From an uncultured cyanobacterium (lineage in GTDB: Bacteria > Cyanobacteriota > Cyanobacteriia > Cyanobacteriales > CAWUOF01): a stretch of 64,000 bases of DNA. This document shows, in pieces, positions 5,818 through 13,399 of this stretch; the first letter of the stretch is position 1; each line of letters opens with the position of its first letter. Under the pieces are notes generated by a model. It made no database searches, was not told the DNA's origin, and saw nothing but the letters and a program-made list of their open reading frames with translations. The stretch lies in the NCBI GenBank assembly GCA_963744145.1, contig CAVUSO010000001.1:3648001-3712000 (forward strand), written 5' to 3'. The translations under genes and the position numbers were made by a program.

Positions 5818-8019
5818 ATGTTACAGTTAGAACCTGCCCAAGTTGGGCTAATGGTCGAAATAGATTATCAAATAATTCATGCAGTACCAGGAAGATTGCG
5901 GGTTCGCATTCCCCGACTCAAGAGCGACGAAGATTTTACTCATAAACTATGTTGGTTGCTCAAAACTTCGCCCCAAGTTTTAGAAGTCCGACTCAATTTG
6001 CCAATTAGTAATCTGATTATTCATTATTCATCCCACCAGATTAGTTTAGCTACGATCGAAGCTCAATTATTTGATCTCATGCACCAGTCGCTGAAAAAGG
6101 ATTTACCTTTACCTGTGCGATCGCATGAATTAGAACCGCGTCGAGAAATTAATCATCTCGAAAAATTAGTTTTACCCTTTCTGGGTTTAGCGATCGCTAT
6201 CCCTACCGCAATCATCGAATTTCCTCCATTATTTTTCGGCGGAACTATAATTATCATTGCGGCCATTCCCCTATTTATATCTACCCTGAAGCAAATTCAA
6301 AAAGAACAAAAATTAACTCTTGATGTGATGGAATCTTTATGGACAATCCTCCATACTCTAGAAGGACATTTAATTGCACCAGCATTAGCATTAAGTTTTG
6401 AAGGAACCTGGACGGTATTGCGAGATCAAACAGCTAGTCCGGTTGATTATCATGCAATTAATCTGAGATTAGAAGGAGTGTATACTCATGTCAAAAGAGG
6501 TGGAAAAGAAGAGCAAGTTTTGATCAAAGAAGTGCAAATTGGGGAACAGGTAGTTGTTTATCCAGGAGATAGAATCCCCGTTGATGGTGAGATTTTAAAA
6601 GGAAAAGCAACGATTGATCAGCATAAATTAACTGGTTGTCCGGATGTAGTAGTAAGACATCCAGGACAAAAAGTTTATGCTGCTACTTTAGTAATGGAAG
6701 GAAAATTAACTATTCTCGCTGAAAAAACTGGAAGTGATACCCAATTAGGTAAGATTATTCACTTGATTAAACACGCACCAGTTCATGATACCAGAATCGC
6801 TGATTTTGCCGAAGATGTGGGTAATATCACGATCTTACCCATCTTATTCCTCAGTTGGACTTTATTTGCGACGACGGGAAATATTAACCAAGCATTAGCG
6901 TTACTCCAATTAGACTTTGCGACAGGAATTCGACTCTCTTCTGCAACTGCGGTATTAACTGCGATCGCTCGTGCTGTTAAGTATGGGGTATATATTCGTA
7001 ATGGGCACACCTTAGAAATGTTAGCTCGGGTTGATACAGTCGTATTCGATAAAACCGGAACATTAACTCAGATTCATAGTGAAGTAGTTGATATTCATAC
7101 TATTGATGATCATATTAGTCCTTTAGAAGTTTTAAGTTTAGCAGCAGCAGTAGAAGGTAAATTAAATCATCCTTATTCTCAAGCAATTGTTCATTTTGCT
7201 GAACAAAAAAATGTTCTTAATCACGTAGAATGTGAATCCTGGGAATATAAAATTGGTCAGGGGATAATTGCCCAAATTAATGGGGAGCAAATCTTAGTAG
7301 GAAGTAAAAAGTTTTTCCGGAAAGCAGGGATTAAAGTCAAAGCACTACGTCATAAACATCACAGTTTAAAACATAGTGGTCACACCCATGTTTATGTGGC
7401 TAAAAATCACCAATTATTAGGTGTAATTTGTTTAAATAATCCCATCCGTCCGGAAAGTATTGAGGTGATTTCTCAACTCAAAACCAAGGGAATTGAATCC
7501 TATATTTTAACCGGAGATCATCCCAAAGCAGCACTAAAGATCGCTCAACAGGTCAATATTGAAGCGAGCAATATATATTCAGATGTTTTTCCAGATCAGA
7601 AGGTAGAAGTGTTAAAGCAACTAGATGAAGAAGGAAGGATAGTAGCTTATATTGGGGATGGATTAAATGATGGAGCTGGATTAGCTTATGCTGATGTTTC
7701 TGTTTCTTTTGCGGAAGGAAGTCATACAGCTCGTCAAACTGCCCAAGTGGTATTGATTAATAATAATTTGCAAGGATTAATGATTGCTATTACGATCGCT
7801 AAACAGGCTATGTCAGCAGTTTATCAAAATATCGGTTTGATTTCTTTTCCGAATGTTAGTGTAGCTCTAGCAGGTCTGATGCTCGGGTTAGATCCAATTA
7901 TGGCTGTCATGGTTAATAGTGGTTTTATGACCTTAGCTGAATTAAATGGACTGCGACCACTGTTAGAGGTAATCGAAACTCCCCAAGCCCCAAAAAGCCA
8001 ACAAAATCAGTTATCATGA
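5818..8019 (+). CDS. P1B-type metal-transporting ATPase (P1B-6/FezB-like, one N-terminal HMA-like domain; TGE motif altered to TGC)
   Basis: HAVPGRLRVR N-domain, PGDRIPVDG, DKTGT, HP, TGD, GDGLND; TM motif DFATG instead of CPC. Confidence 0.9.
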   Translation: MLQLEPAQVGLMVEIDYQIIHAVPGRLRVRIPRLKSDEDFTHKLCWLLKTSPQVLEVRLNLPISNLIIHYSSHQISLATIEAQLFDLMHQSLKKDLPLPVRSHELEPRREINHLEKLVLPFLGLAIAIPTAIIEFPPLFFGGTIIIIAAIPLFISTLKQIQKEQKLTLDVMESLWTILHTLEGHLIAPALALSFEGTWTVLRDQTASPVDYHAINLRLEGVYTHVKRGGKEEQVLIKEVQIGEQVVVYPGDRIPVDGEILKGKATIDQHKLTGCPDVVVRHPGQKVYAATLVMEGKLTILAEKTGSDTQLGKIIHLIKHAPVHDTRIADFAEDVGNITILPILFLSWTLFATTGNINQALALLQLDFATGIRLSSATAVLTAIARAVKYGVYIRNGHTLEMLARVDTVVFDKTGTLTQIHSEVVDIHTIDDHISPLEVLSLAAAVEGKLNHPYSQAIVHFAEQKNVLNHVECESWEYKIGQGIIAQINGEQILVGSKKFFRKAGIKVKALRHKHHSLKHSGHTHVYVAKNHQLLGVICLNNPIRPESIEVISQLKTKGIESYILTGDHPKAALKIAQQVNIEASNIYSDVFPDQKVEVLKQLDEEGRIVAYIGDGLNDGAGLAYADVSVSFAEGSHTARQTAQVVLINNNLQGLMIAITIAKQAMSAVYQNIGLISFPNVSVALAGLMLGLDPIMAVMVNSGFMTLAELNGLRPLLEVIETPQAPKSQQNQLS

Positions 8020-8049
8020 TGCTAAACAGCATTTGGAAGCAAAAGGTAG

Positions 8050-9075
8050 GTGATCCCGATGCCAGAAACTAATCCAGACCAAGTAAATAAATCCCCAGAA
8101 CCATCATTTTGGGAGAGTCTAACTCAATCAGTAATAGATAATGTTAGTGATGTCATAGATCGTACTACTGCTGAAGCGGGAAAAGCGATCGCTGATACCA
8201 CCACCAATGTGGAGTCAGTGATTAATCAAGCGGGAAAAGCGATCGCTGATACCACCACCAATGTGGAGTCCTCGATCAATCAGATGACGAGCGGAATTAA
8301 CAGTGCGATCGCCCAAATCACACCCGATCACGCTGAAATTCGGACTAAAGCTGAAGAAATTGGTGGTGGATTTGCTGGTGCTATAGCAGGAGAAGTGATT
8401 GGTGGTACAATCGGCGGGATTGCGGGCACAGTAGTATTAGGTCCAGTCACTGGTACAATCCTAGGAAACCAATTGGGTAGCTTCATCGGATTCATCATTG
8501 GTGCTCAAGTCGGAGAAGAAGTAGTCCTGCAATCTCGTCCGGTAAAAATTGGTGCGGTAGAAAAAATTAATTCCTTTGAAGAACGCTTAAAACTGGGTTT
8601 GCGAAAACGCGGTGGTGACAAAGTTGGTGATGCAGTTGGTGCGATTACAGGAGGAGTAATTGGTGGTACAGTATTAGGTCCAGTTGGAGTTGTTATTGGT
8701 TCATCCATTGGTGGTGCTTTTGGTGGTCGAATTGGAGAAGATGCAGCACTAGCTCTTGATTACTTAGGAAATCAAACATCACCAACCCCAGATCCAGATA
8801 AATCTGAATCGATCGCTACCTGGTTTGATTCCACCAGTAAAAGTTTTGTAGGTGAATCCGTAACTACTACGGTCGGAGGAATCGTCGGTGGAGCAGTTTT
8901 GGGTATACCAGGAAGTAATTTGGGACGGAAATTGGGGACATTTGTGGGCAGAAAACTCGATTGGAATGGTATTTTAGAAAGTCCACCAGTTCTATCCCCA
9001 GCACTAGAAAGTCAATCAGTTCAAACTCAAGATTTAGAAAATTCACCAGTTCAATTACTAGAGTCATCAAATTGA
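8050..9075 (+). CDS. Glycine-zipper (GxxxG repeat) membrane protein with three zipper blocks
   Basis: GGGFAGAIAGEVIGGTIGGIAG...LGPVTG type blocks; internal 54-nt tandem duplication (AGKAIADTTTNVES). Confidence 0.8.
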   Translation: MIPMPETNPDQVNKSPEPSFWESLTQSVIDNVSDVIDRTTAEAGKAIADTTTNVESVINQAGKAIADTTTNVESSINQMTSGINSAIAQITPDHAEIRTKAEEIGGGFAGAIAGEVIGGTIGGIAGTVVLGPVTGTILGNQLGSFIGFIIGAQVGEEVVLQSRPVKIGAVEKINSFEERLKLGLRKRGGDKVGDAVGAITGGVIGGTVLGPVGVVIGSSIGGAFGGRIGEDAALALDYLGNQTSPTPDPDKSESIATWFDSTSKSFVGESVTTTVGGIVGGAVLGIPGSNLGRKLGTFVGRKLDWNGILESPPVLSPALESQSVQTQDLENSPVQLLESSN

Positions 9076-9110
9076 CCCCAGATATTAACTTAGGGTTAAA
9101 TTATTAAATC

Positions 9111-12358: not shown

Positions 12359-12378
12359 ACTCATCATGGAGAAAAGCA

Positions 12379-12534
12379 ATGGATAATATTCTGAAATTGA
12401 TTGGTAAATTAACTCTATTTACCGTTGGGGTTGTCAGTTTAACGATCGGTGTGATTGGTGTGATTGCACCTCTAATTCCTGGGACACCTTTTCTGATTAT
12501 ATCAAGTCTCTGTTTTGCTATGTTAGGAACTTAA
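12379..12534 (+). CDS. 51-aa membrane peptide, YbaN/DUF454-like
   Basis: Manual translation MDNILKLIGKLTLFTVGVVSLTIGVIGVIAPLIPGTPFLIISSLCFAMLGT; SD GGAG at 12368; fills the operon gap; below the ORF-track size cut-off. Confidence 0.7.
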   Translation: MDNILKLIGKLTLFTVGVVSLTIGVIGVIAPLIPGTPFLIISSLCFAMLGT

Positions 12535-12559
12535 ATTTGTCCTCATCATAGGTAATTTT

Positions 12560-13399
12560 ATGCCAAACCCATCCAAGCAAAATACCTACCAAGTTGTGCA
12601 TCAAACCTTGGGACGTATCCGCATCTCAATTCCTAAACTTAGGTATGATTCAGGTTATGCAGCTCAATGTTTACAGTTGGTTTCTGCTCTGGATGGGATT
12701 ACTAATGTGAGAATTAATCCAGCCGCAGCTTCGATGATTATTAATTATAAGATTAATGTCATTAGTTCTGAGGGAATTGAAGATTATCTGGTTGCTGGTC
12801 TGGGTCAATTAATTTCCCGTAGTCCCCAACCATCTGGTCGGTCACAAGAATCTTCATCGGTAGATCAATCTGGTGAGGTAAATTGGGAAGAGGAAATCGT
12901 TGAAAAAGTAGATGAAGAAATTGGTGCTTCCGTGGGAGAAAAATTTGGAGAAGTAGTTGGAGGTACGGTTGGAGCTTTTTTACTAGGAGAAGAAGGACTC
13001 AAGATTGGCTCAGAACTGGGAGAATTAATTGGGGAAAATTTGGGAGAAGAAGCTGGTCGGGCGATCGCTCACGCTAGCGGATCTGATTCCGGACATGAAA
13101 AACATCCTGCACCAAAAGATTTTGGTGAAATTGTAGCTGAAGTAGAACAGGAGTTACCCCATAAAATAGAAGAAGTTGCTGGAGCCGAAATGGGTCAAGT
13201 AATTGGTGAAACTATAGGAGAAATTGTTGGGGAAGTGTTATTAGGACCAATCGGGATGGTAATTGGTGCAGAAATAGGAGCAGCAGTTGGTGCAGAATTG
13301 GGAGAAGAATTCGTAGAAATGATTGAGCATCAAGAGCATCAAGAACATCAAAAACATGAAAAACACCAAGAACACCAAGAACATCATTCTAATCATTAG
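12560..13399 (+). CDS. HMA-like domain + acidic glycine-zipper protein with His-rich tail
   Basis: HQTLGRIRIS...VRINPAAASMII N-domain; GExxGExxG blocks; C-terminus HQEHQEHQKHEKHQEHQEHHSNH. Confidence 0.8.
   Translation: MPNPSKQNTYQVVHQTLGRIRISIPKLRYDSGYAAQCLQLVSALDGITNVRINPAAASMIINYKINVISSEGIEDYLVAGLGQLISRSPQPSGRSQESSSVDQSGEVNWEEEIVEKVDEEIGASVGEKFGEVVGGTVGAFLLGEEGLKIGSELGELIGENLGEEAGRAIAHASGSDSGHEKHPAPKDFGEIVAEVEQELPHKIEEVAGAEMGQVIGETIGEIVGEVLLGPIGMVIGAEIGAAVGAELGEEFVEMIEHQEHQEHQKHEKHQEHQEHHSNH

Follow-up and report, generated by a model that had tools for sequence, protein, structure and literature searches.

The six-gene run at positions 5818 to 13399 of the window (the whole stretch of 64,000 nt analysed) is best read, with a probability of about 0.7, as a compact cluster centred on a calcyanin (ccyA) gene, of the same kind as those marking cyanobacteria capable of forming intracellular amorphous Ca-carbonate (iACC). 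Calcyanin is a marker of iACC-forming cyanobacteria, and the cyanobacterial ccyA locus is the closest known system. Cation sequestration would be the best reading of its function. The original prediction had proposed a ferrosome-like (fez) metal-storage cluster, and it appears to hold insofar as the cluster is of a sort linked to an intracellular mineral inclusion. The host is a filamentous cyanobacterium. All six predicted co-oriented genes, with the motifs ascribed to them, were recovered on the + strand as open frames in the order A1, G1, D, A2, S and G2, separated by 30, 234, 67, 20 and 25 nt. A scan of the 27 flanking ORFs in the window that reach 110 aa or more revealed neither cax nor bicA, no carbonic anhydrase gene and nothing related to iron, iron-uptake and Fur-type genes included; transposase genes are located at about 26-32 kb.

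By profile search, BLASTP and HMM, G1 (8050-9075, + strand, 341 aa from a GTG start, 338 aa in its database copy) is a homologue of the published Y-type calcyanins. The G1 profile matched a plasmid protein of 401 aa in Fischerella sp. NIES-4106 (E = 2.5e-81) and also a protein of 329 aa in Chlorogloeopsis fritschii PCC 9212, both of which fit Y-type calcyanins in length, organism and replicon according to Sup Table 2a of PMC8890360. The identity between G1 and the Fischerella calcyanin is 36% over 295 aa (E = 2e-48, BLASTP), and the alignment is collinear through three glycine zippers (GlyZips). An HMM built from four Y-type proteins, of which two were matched to Sup Table 2a and two assigned by organism and similarity, spans only two GlyZips and scored G1 at 95.9 bits; the controls reached at most 7.5 bits in 200 shuffles and 0.1 in 200 block shuffles. 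In G1, three GlyZip units, centred on GP, GP and G-IP-G, come after a short N-terminal part rich in Ala and Thr and before a conserved W...GE...DW signature; W258, E269 and W305 are invariant across the family. The calcyanin signature given in PMC8890360 (a central Gly-Pro in each GlyZip, conserved W and E in GlyZip3) is seen in G1, with G-I-P-G at the third centre.

Some caution is needed with G1, as the nearest published calcyanin is just 36% identical, the third zipper has G-I-P-G instead of G-P, and the N-terminal part is shorter than in that protein. This part carries a recent 54-nt tandem duplication (8174-8282, + strand, 2.0 copies, 92% matches), which gives a repeated AGKAIADTTTNVES stretch in the protein.

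On profile, alignment and model evidence, G2 (12560-13399, + strand, 279 aa) is the second calcyanin-like protein of the cluster; it combines a CoBaHMA domain with two GlyZip hairpins, both strongly acidic, and an (HQE)n tail. The prediction of two glycine-zipper proteins, one with an HMA-like domain, agrees with the three long zippers in G1 and two in G2, the latter scoring 40.6 bits for HMA_2 (PF19991, Pfam cut-off 30 bits), and the predicted acidic zippers are those of G2, with 12 and 11 acidic residues. G2 has a PdsO GlyZip match, and its zippers are 33% identical to GlyZip1-2 of the Fischerella calcyanin (E = 5e-14). AF2 models residues 10-86 as strand-strand-helix-strand-strand-helix, at pLDDT 74-85, and places two helical hairpins after them. 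Relatives of G2 are P0018-P0020, P0012 and proteins of Nostoc flagelliforme. The His/Glu tail is present as predicted, but it is encoded by a 9-nt repeat (CATCAAGAA, 13328-13386, + strand, 6.6 copies; His/Gln/Glu in the protein) and is absent from P0018 and P0019, the closest relatives found.

A1 (5818-8019, + strand, 733 aa) and A2 (9743-12358, + strand, 871 aa) are the two P-type ATPases without CPC that had been predicted, and with 428 and 489 bits, respectively, both pass the curated threshold of 346 bits for TIGR01525 (heavy-metal P-type ATPase). TM4 reads LDFATGIR in A1 and LDLGTGIR in A2, and TM6 reads VNSGF and INNGSA. The Arg-rich HMA-like N-domains were likewise recovered: HMA_2 gave 33.0 bits for A1 and 37.1 bits for A2, the Arg-rich strand is PGRLRVRIPR in A1, PQRLRVRIPR in A2 and LGRIRISIPK in G2, and A1 has one such N-terminal domain and A2 two CoBaHMA-like ones, with the strand degenerate in the first copy. 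The A-domain loop of A1 has TGC where TGE is expected, a reading that, among the 104 rows of the pump alignment, is confined to A1 and an identical database copy of it. In A2 every catalytic motif is intact, and the protein shares 63% and 62% identity with ATPases encoded on N. flagelliforme plasmids; the motif columns of the alignment are conserved in the A2 group and variable in the A1 group. From these motifs, A1 is probably a partly degenerate pump and A2 a conserved one.

The TGC loop and degenerate ion site of A1 might also point to a decaying or mosaic island, assembled by mobile DNA and no longer one working unit, as might the recent tandem repeats within G1 and G2, the transposase genes in the window, and related islands on plasmids, which lie beside ParB and hold pseudo-ATPases without DKTGT. 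However, no frame is interrupted, all six genes run the same way at distances of 20-234 nt, A2 keeps its catalytic motifs, the small genes D and S are 54-56% identical in N. flagelliforme, and the GC content of the cluster is in line with that of the remaining window; such decay is hardly credible.

Ferrosomes are bacterial iron granules filled by a FezB-family pump, and in a ferrosome-like cluster the GxxxG proteins would shape a lipid-bounded vesicle that the pumps fill with Fe(II), yielding Fe-P granules. The parts of the locus do resemble the description of fez clusters by Grant and Komeili (preprint 10.1101/2020.01.10.902569): there, a P1B pump carries an R-rich motif at its N terminus that recurs in accessory proteins, GxxxG proteins are present, and large clusters add a second R-rich pump (FezH) whose TM metal-binding sites are distinct. 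However, the same preprint reports FezB homologues mostly from anaerobes, and its FezB/P1B-6 hallmarks, D[Y/F]SCA and HNxxT, are absent: the equivalent sites are DFATG and NSGFM in A1 and DLGTG and NNGSA in A2, although HNxxT is present in 14 of 14 DxSCA rows. In the pump tree of 104 rows, the 14 rows with both hallmarks fell in their own clade (15 rows, support 98), and A1 and A2 fell inside its sister clade (84 rows, support 97), where TM4 is D-x-x-T-G. The A1 subclade (9 rows, support 91) includes the first ATPase of N. flagelliforme pNFSY07, and the A2 subclade is tight (5 rows, support 99). The tree thus puts A1 and A2, as P1B-type ATPases, in a large clade sister to the ferrosome-type P1B-6 pumps, apparently as cousins and not members of the ferrosome-filling family. 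Soft TM ligands (Ser-Cys-Ala, His-Asn) have given way to oxygen ligands (D-x-G/A-T-G, N-N-G-S) in the A1/A2 clade, and the SCA-equivalent TM4 and TM6 motif positions of A1 and A2 hold no Cys, His, Met or acidic residue, except at TM4 the Asp of L-D, which is also part of the P1B-6 motif.

With both hallmarks absent and a position outside the P1B-6-motif clade, FezB/P1B-6 membership of A1 and A2 was rejected. The original prediction had itself named ATPases grouping outside this clade as evidence against it, and because A1 and A2 lie outside, the ferrosome family assignment fails. DUF4405, FeoA and DUF2202 matched none of the six proteins (Pfam, E <= 0.01), the accessory proteins showing significant homology to calcyanins and matches to the calcyanin system instead of the Fez families, and the 27 flanking ORFs scanned, with no iron genes among them, also argue against a ferrosome cluster, which we regard as very improbable. 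What stands of that proposal are the P1B pumps, the Arg-rich HMA-like domains and the glycine-zipper proteins; the named family does not. The analogy possibly remains as a deep relationship, with sister pumps, glycine-zipper partners and a common N-terminal domain family (11 of 14 scanned pumps with the P1B-6 motifs match HMA_2 at E <= 1e-3, and 4 lie above the cut-off).

The small protein D (9310-9675, + strand, 121 aa) pairs a single TM helix at its N terminus with an acidic helix rich in Glu and Ala. It had been called DUF5132-like, which stands by way of an intermediate profile, seeded by a Pfam-verified DUF5132 ORF (84.3 bits) and reaching D in iteration at E = 1.5e-18, but not by a direct Pfam hit (none at E <= 5); its homologue in N. 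flagelliforme (54% identity) is annotated DUF5132. D is a near-constant small neighbour of the A1/A2 pump family: of the 82 related loci that hold an ATPase ORF, 75 have a DUF5132-like ORF no more than 600 nt away from it (median gap 74 nt). The predicted 51-aa membrane peptide is S (12379-12534, + strand), a hydrophobic hairpin aligning only with the N-terminal third of DUF454 (YbaN) (38 of 115 positions; 35.6 bits against a Pfam cut-off of 35.1). S is 56% identical to a 51-aa ORF of N. flagelliforme pNFSY04 annotated DUF454 and 44% identical to an ORF of pNFSY07, and the C. fritschii ccyA island lists a 44-aa "DUF454 family protein".

The same gene families co-occur on two N. flagelliforme plasmids, a Gloeothece plasmid and the C. 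fritschii ccyA island, so their grouping is more than chance. The C. fritschii island (Sup Table 3) lists SulP/BicA, ccyA and a cax fragment and, further on, ParB, HM-ATPase, SUMF1, Nif11, HM-ATPase, USP, cax, ArsA and the DUF454 gene. In pNFSY07 the order from ParB to cax is the same, and in the 104-row tree one of its ATPases groups with A1 and the other with A2; through these pumps, the ATPase gene order here appears to match that of the C. fritschii island. The preprint 10.1101/2024.07.07.602159 describes CoBaHMA-DUF454, two DUF5132 genes, a CoBaHMA protein and GlyZip proteins around Microcystis ccyA, and PMC8890360 two cation ATPases on the Fischerella megaplasmid with ccyA. In both C. 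fritschii and Microcystis, ccyA is surrounded by the same gene families.

All 80 genome loci retrieved using A2 as query carry a paralogue (about 45-54% identical), and most also have DUF5132 and small CoBaHMA ORFs. In these and three plasmid loci no G1 homologue was found, the only match, a weak one, being a GlyZip ORF of the Gloeothece plasmid. Gloeothece/Cyanothece PCC 7822 has the pump module and no ccyA entry in Sup Table 5, and pNFSY07 has five of the six families and no G1 within the 37 kb inspected. The pump family is not specific to ccyA.

The module of pump, DUF5132 and CoBaHMA is common throughout cyanobacteria. This breadth, with 0 of 80 genome loci carrying G1, would suit a general cation-homeostasis or efflux platform without an inclusion link, in which the CoBaHMA pump and DUF5132 export a metal such as Mn, Fe, Zn or Ni over the plasma or thylakoid membrane, the small proteins serve as its scaffolds or chaperones like those of the mycobacterial PacL-Ctp "effluxosomes", and the GlyZip proteins are membrane scaffolds. 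A manganese efflux pump gene lies in the N. flagelliforme island, G2 has its His-rich tail, and DUF5132 proteins, which have a single TM helix, a helix rich in Glu and Ala and sometimes His-rich ends, resemble PacL as described in PMC13460109 (single TM, EA repeats, optional His-rich motif). However, the PacL likeness is an analogy only, because D and its relatives have no DUF1490 or DUF6110 match (Pfam, E <= 5); the His tail is a lineage-specific repeat, G1 is strongly homologous to the iACC marker, and the pumps of C. fritschii and N. flagelliforme have cax and a Ca-type P-ATPase in their company. We consider plain efflux unlikely.

For the ccyA-type cluster, a mechanism can be suggested. 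To our knowledge, export from the cytosol is common to all characterised P1B pumps. The conserved and catalytically complete A2 would move a hard divalent cation out of the cytosol, with a membrane-bounded space or the membrane adjoining the inclusion as destination; Ca2+ or another alkaline-earth ion would fit the ccyA context, and Mn2+ or Fe2+ is also possible. We know of no P1B ATPase shown to carry Ca2+. What envelops iACC inclusions may be something other than a lipid bilayer, which, if so, would exclude a pump sitting in it. For A1, where TGC replaces TGE and the ion site is degenerate, the role of a slow or regulatory paralogue is likelier than that of a further working pump. In A1, A2 and G2 the basic CoBaHMA domains may dock onto anionic lipids or one another and thereby tether the pumps or regulate them. 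The zipper hairpins of G1 and G2 may self-associate at the pump/inclusion site, where the 23 acidic zipper residues of G2 could bind cations, and D and S may be small membrane partners of the pump. In Cyanothece 7425, deletion of cax3-4 beside ccyA caused no visible iACC change (PMC13642857), and ccyA neighbours therefore need not be required.

Compared with Mycobacterium PacL-Ctp, where PacL is the obligate small single-TM partner of P1B pumps (Ctp), the locus likewise encodes a one-TM protein with a Glu/Ala-rich cytosolic helix beside a P1B pump whose N-terminal domain lacks CxxC, and some DUF5132 homologues have His-rich ends; there is no detectable relationship by the Pfam searches above, and the D-A2 partnership is putative. 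The Nostocales CoBaHMA-pump loci share a pump about 50% identical to A2, DUF5132 directly downstream and several HMA_2 proteins, but have no GlyZip/calcyanin gene or DUF454 mini-gene; one of them (L004, Nostoc indistinguendum MAG) has an HMA_2-PAP2 lipid phosphatase fusion instead. Fez clusters (FezB P1B-6 ATPase, GxxxG proteins FezA/E/G, R-rich proteins FezC/D, FezH) are alike in their HMA-like pump and accessory domains, glycine-motif proteins, sister pump clade and, in some, two pumps, and differ in their TM4/TM6 hallmarks, their DUF4405, FeoA, DUF2202 and iron context, and their single GxxxG helices, unlike the 40-60-residue calcyanin-type hairpins found here in an oxygenic phototroph. The ccyA loci compared were those of the Fischerella sp. 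NIES-4106 megaplasmid, C. fritschii PCC 6912/9212, Microcystis aeruginosa PCC 7806 and Cyanothece PCC 7425. Unlike them, the present locus is one tight run with ccyA between two pumps and the CoBaHMA-bearing, two-zipper G2 in the same run, and lacks cax, bicA and carbonic anhydrase among the flanking ORFs scanned. It shares with them a calcyanin homologous across all three GlyZips, beside which lie CoBaHMA, DUF5132, a DUF454-type mini-protein, extra GlyZip proteins and P-type ATPases, with the two-ATPase order of the C. fritschii island matched in N. flagelliforme, whose pumps group with A1 and A2.

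Six open reading frames (ORFs) lie head to tail on the forward strand of the window: a P1B-type ATPase, A1 (5818-8019), a glycine-zipper (GlyZip) protein, G1 (8050-9075), a 121-aa DUF5132-like membrane protein, D (9310-9675), a second P1B-type ATPase, A2 (9743-12358), a 51-aa membrane peptide, S (12379-12534), and a second GlyZip protein, G2 (12560-13399), with intergenic gaps of 30, 234, 67, 20 and 25 nt (ORF coordinates are those of the original prediction). The six co-oriented genes and the motifs ascribed to them are real, apart from qualifications concerning the tail of G2 and the family of D, and the GC content of the run is about that of the remainder of the window. 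The best explanation of its identity and general role, to which we give a probability of about 0.7, is a cation-sequestration cluster centred on a calcyanin, the product of ccyA, the marker gene of intracellular amorphous Ca-carbonate (iACC).

The run is flanked on one side by a divergent htpG and on the other by a YbjN-like gene, a large eCIS_core-domain protein and clpB, and a scan of the 27 larger ORFs in the window (Pfam, E <= 1e-5) revealed no iron, calcium or bicarbonate gene. No Rfam family reached its gathering score in the window or in four loci, and even at E <= 1 nothing was matched in 5400-13800, so the window offers no riboswitch clue to the ion. By sequence scan, there were 14 promoter-like sites compared with 22.9 in shuffles, and 5 terminator-like sites compared with 5.5. 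The eCIS_core (DUF4157-type) protein has 1227 aa (14228-17911, reverse strand), a HELTH zinc-protease-like motif and repeated HPEKEEVQRKPDLQ units, and is possibly effector-like, either secreted or injected. Elsewhere, the window holds a TPS-domain (two-partner secretion) ORF truncated by its edge (1-1815, reverse strand), an IS110-type transposase (25934-26755), two DDE_3 transposase fragments with PIN-domain genes (29383-32104), XisH followed by a small adjoining ORF (42355-43097), one stretch with three large TPR-CHAT proteins (876, 1240 and 1062 aa) and a DUF928 gene (43924-57280), in which the second CHAT region reaches a GC content of 0.45 (53375-54070; about 0.40 elsewhere), and an EgtD-like histidine methyltransferase (63021-63998).

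The original prediction regarded the run as a candidate ferrosome (fez) cluster. The ferrosome pump FezB, of type P1B-6, is defined by D[Y/F]SCA in TM4 and HNxxT in TM6, and an R-rich N-terminal motif is also found in FezB-related pumps (Grant & Komeili, 10.1101/2020.01.10.902569); the TM6 motif of P1B-6 is given as N-x18-H-N-x-(S/T) in PMC13460109. Both defining motifs are missing from A1 and A2. The Ser-Cys-Ala positions of TM4 are A-T-G in A1 (LDFATG) and G-T-G in A2 (LDLGTG), and the aligned column of TM6 reads NSGFM in A1 and NNGSA in A2. A profile-free exhaustive search of 1.84 billion representatives was performed with A2 as query, and the best 150 matches were filtered for full length (DKTGT no closer than 300 residues to the start or 250 to the end, length at most 1100); the 91 matches kept, together with 13 ATPases from the window and the loci, made up the 104 rows of the tree. 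In a quick FastTree analysis rooted on 5 CPC-type rows, where P1B-6 rows were assigned by motif and not through named FezB, FezH or CtpC sequences, the 14 DxSC(A/G) rows (14/14 with HNxxT in the aligned TM6 column) were within their own clade of 15 (support 98), while A1 and A2 fell among the 84 rows of its sister clade (support 97), in which TM4 is mostly D-x-x-T-G and TM6 mostly (N/S)-N-G-(S/T). The A1/A2 clade is thereby placed as the nearest relatives of ferrosome-type pumps, as far as references recognized by motif, not by name, can represent these.

The accessory proteins had also been expected to resemble Fez proteins, and this was not borne out: DUF4405, FeoA and DUF2202 were matched by none of the six proteins (Pfam, E <= 0.01), and neither these families nor iron-homeostasis genes were found in the 27 flanking ORFs (Pfam, E <= 1e-5). 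Because A1 and A2 lie outside the FezB clade and the Fez families are missing, findings that the original prediction itself had named as refuting it, membership in a fez cluster is refuted. The analogy with ferrosomes is partly supported, since GRLRVRIPR-type strands are indeed present in A1, A2 and the accessory protein G2, and glycine zippers in G1 and G2, as had been claimed; HMA_2 was found at E <= 1e-3 in 11/14 of the P1B-6-motif pumps scanned.

The calcyanin reading is carried by G1, which has a short Ala/Thr-rich N-terminal part followed by three glycine zippers of 40-60 residues, centred on LGP, LGP and LG-I-PG (the third is G-P in 5/8 aligned relatives). The C-terminal domain of calcyanins is described as long GlyZip repeats with a central Gly-Pro in each, and Trp and Glu are strictly conserved in GlyZip3 (PMC8890360). 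Using G1 alone as a query, 13 proteins were obtained, namely its own database copy (P0001) and relatives, mostly from metagenomes and with no informative name, the six closest being 45-55% identical. A profile made from G1 and eight relatives (a 9-row alignment) found 23 proteins, among them a 401-aa plasmid protein of Fischerella sp. NIES-4106 (E 2.5e-81) and proteins of C. fritschii PCC 9212 (329 aa), F. thermalis (330 aa) and a Fischerella MAG (E 1e-57 to 3e-62). The NIES-4106 and PCC 9212 matches were tied by organism, length and replicon (plasmid for Fischerella) to the Y-type calcyanins of these strains in Sup Table 2a of Benzerara et al. 2022 (PMC8890360). BLASTP aligned G1 with the Fischerella calcyanin collinearly across the three GlyZips (36% identity, 295 residues, E 2e-48), taking in the GlyZip3 signature W...GE...DW, of which W, GE and DW are aligned with W258, E269 and W305, all invariant in the 9-row alignment. 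An HMM of four Y-type proteins, only two GlyZips long, gave 95.9 bits for G1 and 48.8 bits for G2; the score of G1 is not due to composition, since the best of 200 residue shuffles scored 7.5 bits and the best of 200 four-residue block shuffles 0.1. For comparison, the pCALF calcyanin rule is a GlyX3 HMM coverage of at least 60% at E <= 1e-20 with Gly1, Gly2 and Gly3 in order. These comparisons identify G1 as a calcyanin homologue and, at 36% identity to the nearest published one, as a putative divergent subtype that is new here.

The N-termini of calcyanins have been classed as W (CoBaHMA), X, Y and Z. Residues 31-100 of G1 align weakly with part of the Fischerella Y domain, the domain of G1 being about 75 residues shorter (comparison with the Y-type only). 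No match to G1 above 0.81 was found in the protein atlas search, and none by tblastn against the plasmid collection; the tblastn result is uninformative, since the low-complexity filter was on and the collection lacks the Fischerella megaplasmid. Recent tandem repeats lie within the coding sequence of G1, namely a 54-nt duplication in the N-terminal part (8174-8282) and a 30-nt unit in 2.7 copies in the C-terminal tail (8973-9054).

G2 has an HMA_2 domain, two zippers with 12 and 11 acidic residues, respectively, and a tail of His, Gln and Glu residues. Its N-terminus bears the CoBaHMA signature (a His ahead of strand 1 and conserved Arg; H14, R19, R21 and R51 are invariant across the G2 family), but it has just two GlyZips, which are 33% identical to GlyZip1-2 of the Fischerella calcyanin (E 5e-14). 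The AF2 model of the N-terminal domain is strand-strand-helix-strand-strand-helix (pLDDT 74-85), in agreement with CoBaHMA, which is ferredoxin-like with one more strand at the N-terminus, and a Foldseek search of the PDB gave no match at E <= 0.001, the top matches above this value including many HMA domains, such as MerP (TM 0.74 over 65 columns). The His/Glu tail in the original prediction is real, but it is encoded by a recent 9-nt repeat (6.6 copies, 13328-13386) that is absent from the two closest relatives found. The search with G2 returned no 100% self-match, unlike that with G1; G2 may be unannotated in the source record or outside the matches listed. As for D, its proposed assignment to DUF5132 (PF17195) found no direct Pfam match at E <= 5, yet an iterated profile seeded with a Pfam-verified member ORF (84.3 bits) reached D at E 1.5e-18. 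DUF5132 proteins of the homologous loci (e.g. L011:6101-6400, L032:13488-13790, L046:13256-13564) combine a single TM helix with a GKP turn and a Glu/Ala-rich helix, and several end in HDHDH-type motifs. Mycobacterial PacL pump scaffolds (PMC13460109) are like D and the DUF5132 proteins in architecture only, and the PacL families DUF1490 and DUF6110 had no Pfam match at E <= 5 in D and two homologues. S matches the first third of DUF454 (Pfam).

Both pumps exceed the cut-off of TIGR01525 (heavy-metal P-type ATPase; 428 bits for A1 and 489 for A2, cut-off 346), and the N-terminal Pfam domain HMA_2 (PF19991, cut-off 30) scores 33.0 bits in A1, 37.1 in A2 and 40.6 in G2. At the site of CPC in copper/zinc pumps, TM4 reads LDFATGIR in A1 and LDLGTGIR in A2, and TM6 carries VNSGF and INNGSA, respectively. 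The catalytic motifs TGE, DKTGT, HP, TGD and GDGxND are all present in A2, and all but TGE in A1, whose A-domain loop is L-T-G-C-P at the position of the TGE dephosphorylation loop. The glutamate of TGE is required for dephosphorylation, and TGC in its place occurs only in A1 and its identical database copy among the 104 aligned pumps. A1 would be expected to become phosphorylated but to lose the phosphate poorly. Ion-site residues in TM4 and TM6 are variable across the A1 group and fixed across the A2 group. The working pump would be A2, whose group retains LDxGTGIR, INNG(S/T)A and the full set of catalytic motifs. Every P1B pump characterised so far is known to export cations from the cytosol. 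The TM site of A2 has oxygen ligands only, and the cargo would be a hard divalent cation suited to such a site. Ca2+ or one of its heavier relatives is favoured by the ccyA context and by the cax and Ca-type ATPase genes that adjoin the pumps in related islands, with Mn2+ or Fe2+ as alternatives; that Ca2+ in particular is pumped is far less probable than the sequestration role itself. A1 may perhaps be regulatory, given TGC and its variable ion-site positions, like the CoBaHMA pseudo-ATPases of related islands. For the partners, CoBaHMA domains have been proposed to bind anionic lipids (as cited in 10.1101/2024.07.07.602159), and GlyZip hairpins to pack into oligomers (PMC8890360). A complex prediction for A2 residues 205-830 with D (score 0.00) has no bearing on binding either way. 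The best pump matches are from Nostoc, and these, with the XisH, CHAT-TPR and DUF928 genes of the window, suggest that the host is a filamentous, Nostocales-like cyanobacterium.

The sequences of pump paralogues suggest that these have repeatedly been converted into non-catalytic partners. Two ORFs annotated as 'HMA2 domain-containing', on the Gloeothece PCC 7822 plasmid (L003:12825-14393) and on Nostoc flagelliforme pNFSY07 (L084:5632-7623), are P1B-ATPase relics that retain the CoBaHMA domain and TM helices; DKTGT is lost from both, and TGE from the N. flagelliforme one.

Surroundings of ccyA have been described in several cyanobacteria. Those in Microcystis include CoBaHMA-DUF454, two DUF5132, a CoBaHMA protein, cax and DUF1269 GlyZip proteins (10.1101/2024.07.07.602159), and the Fischerella megaplasmid carries two cation ATPases and a carbonic anhydrase (PMC8890360). 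The gene order in C. fritschii is SulP/BicA, ccyA, a cax fragment, a COG2217 'HAD hydrolase', three hypotheticals and ParB, then HM-ATPase (46445-48742), SUMF1, Nif11, HM-ATPase (51595-54399) and a hypothetical, and then USP, cax, ArsA, DUF454 (58391-58525) and, further on, a COG0474 ATPase (Sup Table 3, PMC8890360). ATPases close to ccyA in C. fritschii have the accessions WP_016872902 and WP_016872905. The stretch from ParB to cax is the same on pNFSY07, where one pump groups with A1 and the other with A2 in the tree, and where a pseudo-ATPase, cax, ArsA, a DUF454 mini-gene, a 402-aa G2-like protein, DUF5132, DUF1345 and MntP lie upstream. No G1 homologue was found in 37 kb of pNFSY07. A 302-aa ORF after cax was considered as a ccyA candidate there and rejected, being a cax fragment. 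On pNFSY04 we found DUF5132, an A2-like pump (63% identity), a permease, a G2-like protein and a 51-aa DUF454 gene. The Gloeothece PCC 7822 plasmid carries a pump, DUF1345, DUF5132, a 40-aa ORF, a CoBaHMA pseudo-ATPase, a GlyZip ORF, a lipid kinase and DUF1269, and for this strain Sup Table 5 (PMC8890360) lists no ccyA.

A genome scan with A2 gave 80 loci, all of those with a named organism being cyanobacterial and mostly Nostocales, each with a paralogue about 45-54% identical to A2 and usually with 1-3 small CoBaHMA ORFs upstream. Of the 82 loci that contain an ATPase ORF, 75 have a DUF5132-like ORF at most 600 nt from the pump, with a median gap of 74 nt; the others are L002, L048 (632 nt), L076, L077, L080, L082 and L083, with L076 and L077 being contigs of less than 4 kb. 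No G1 or S homologue was found in the 80 loci, which shows that pump, DUF5132 and CoBaHMA are more widespread than ccyA; they form a general cyanobacterial module, to which calcyanin-type zippers are added in some lineages. One such locus, in a Nostoc indistinguendum MAG (L004, ~9290-20004), holds a double-HMA_2 protein, an HMA_2 protein, a DxxTG pump, DUF5132 and more HMA_2 proteins, including an HMA_2-PAP2 lipid phosphatase fusion; this type of locus is Nostocales-wide, is shared by most of L004-L083 and has no glycine-zipper gene.

A wider reading, which we regard as unlikely, traces both ferrosomes and the Ca-carbonate inclusions of cyanobacteria to a single ancient toolkit, each being built by one of its two branches, and has A2-type pumps load iACC. 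The toolkit would comprise a P1B pump bearing a basic HMA_2/CoBaHMA domain, accessory proteins sharing this domain, and glycine-zipper proteins. If so, Asp/Thr/Asn/Ser would have taken the place of the Cys/His ligands of the pump in the cyanobacterial branch, A2-type pumps, as the missing iACC loader, would be the first of the P1B ATPases to move alkaline-earth cations (Ca2+, Sr2+, Ba2+), and the six-gene run would approximate a minimal set for rebuilding such an inclusion in another host. A literature search, with Gaschignard et al. 2024 and Grant et al. 2022 outside its scope, found no work combining 'ferrosome' with 'calcyanin' or 'iACC'. The sequestration of Ca, Sr, Ba and Ra by iACC-forming cyanobacteria makes them interesting to geochemistry and remediation. 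Published genetics so far consist of a cax3-4 knockout with no visible effect (PMC13642857). While ccyA has so far been a marker only, a calcyanin located between two pumps of a defined P1B clade, with small partners that are also ccyA-linked, provides a short list of genes and points to a specific candidate iACC transporter.

Compared with known systems, the kind of locus is not new, since ccyA with CoBaHMA, DUF5132, DUF454 and P-type ATPases nearby has been described. What appears to be new, judged from the sequences, is the compact operon-like form with the putative ccyA between two pumps, the presence of a CoBaHMA two-zipper paralogue, G2, within the same run, and the predicted position of the ccyA-linked pumps in a clade sister to the ferrosome pumps, the latter identified by motif. 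If confirmed with named references, this sister relation would join two bacterial mineral inclusions that seem unconnected in the literature searched.
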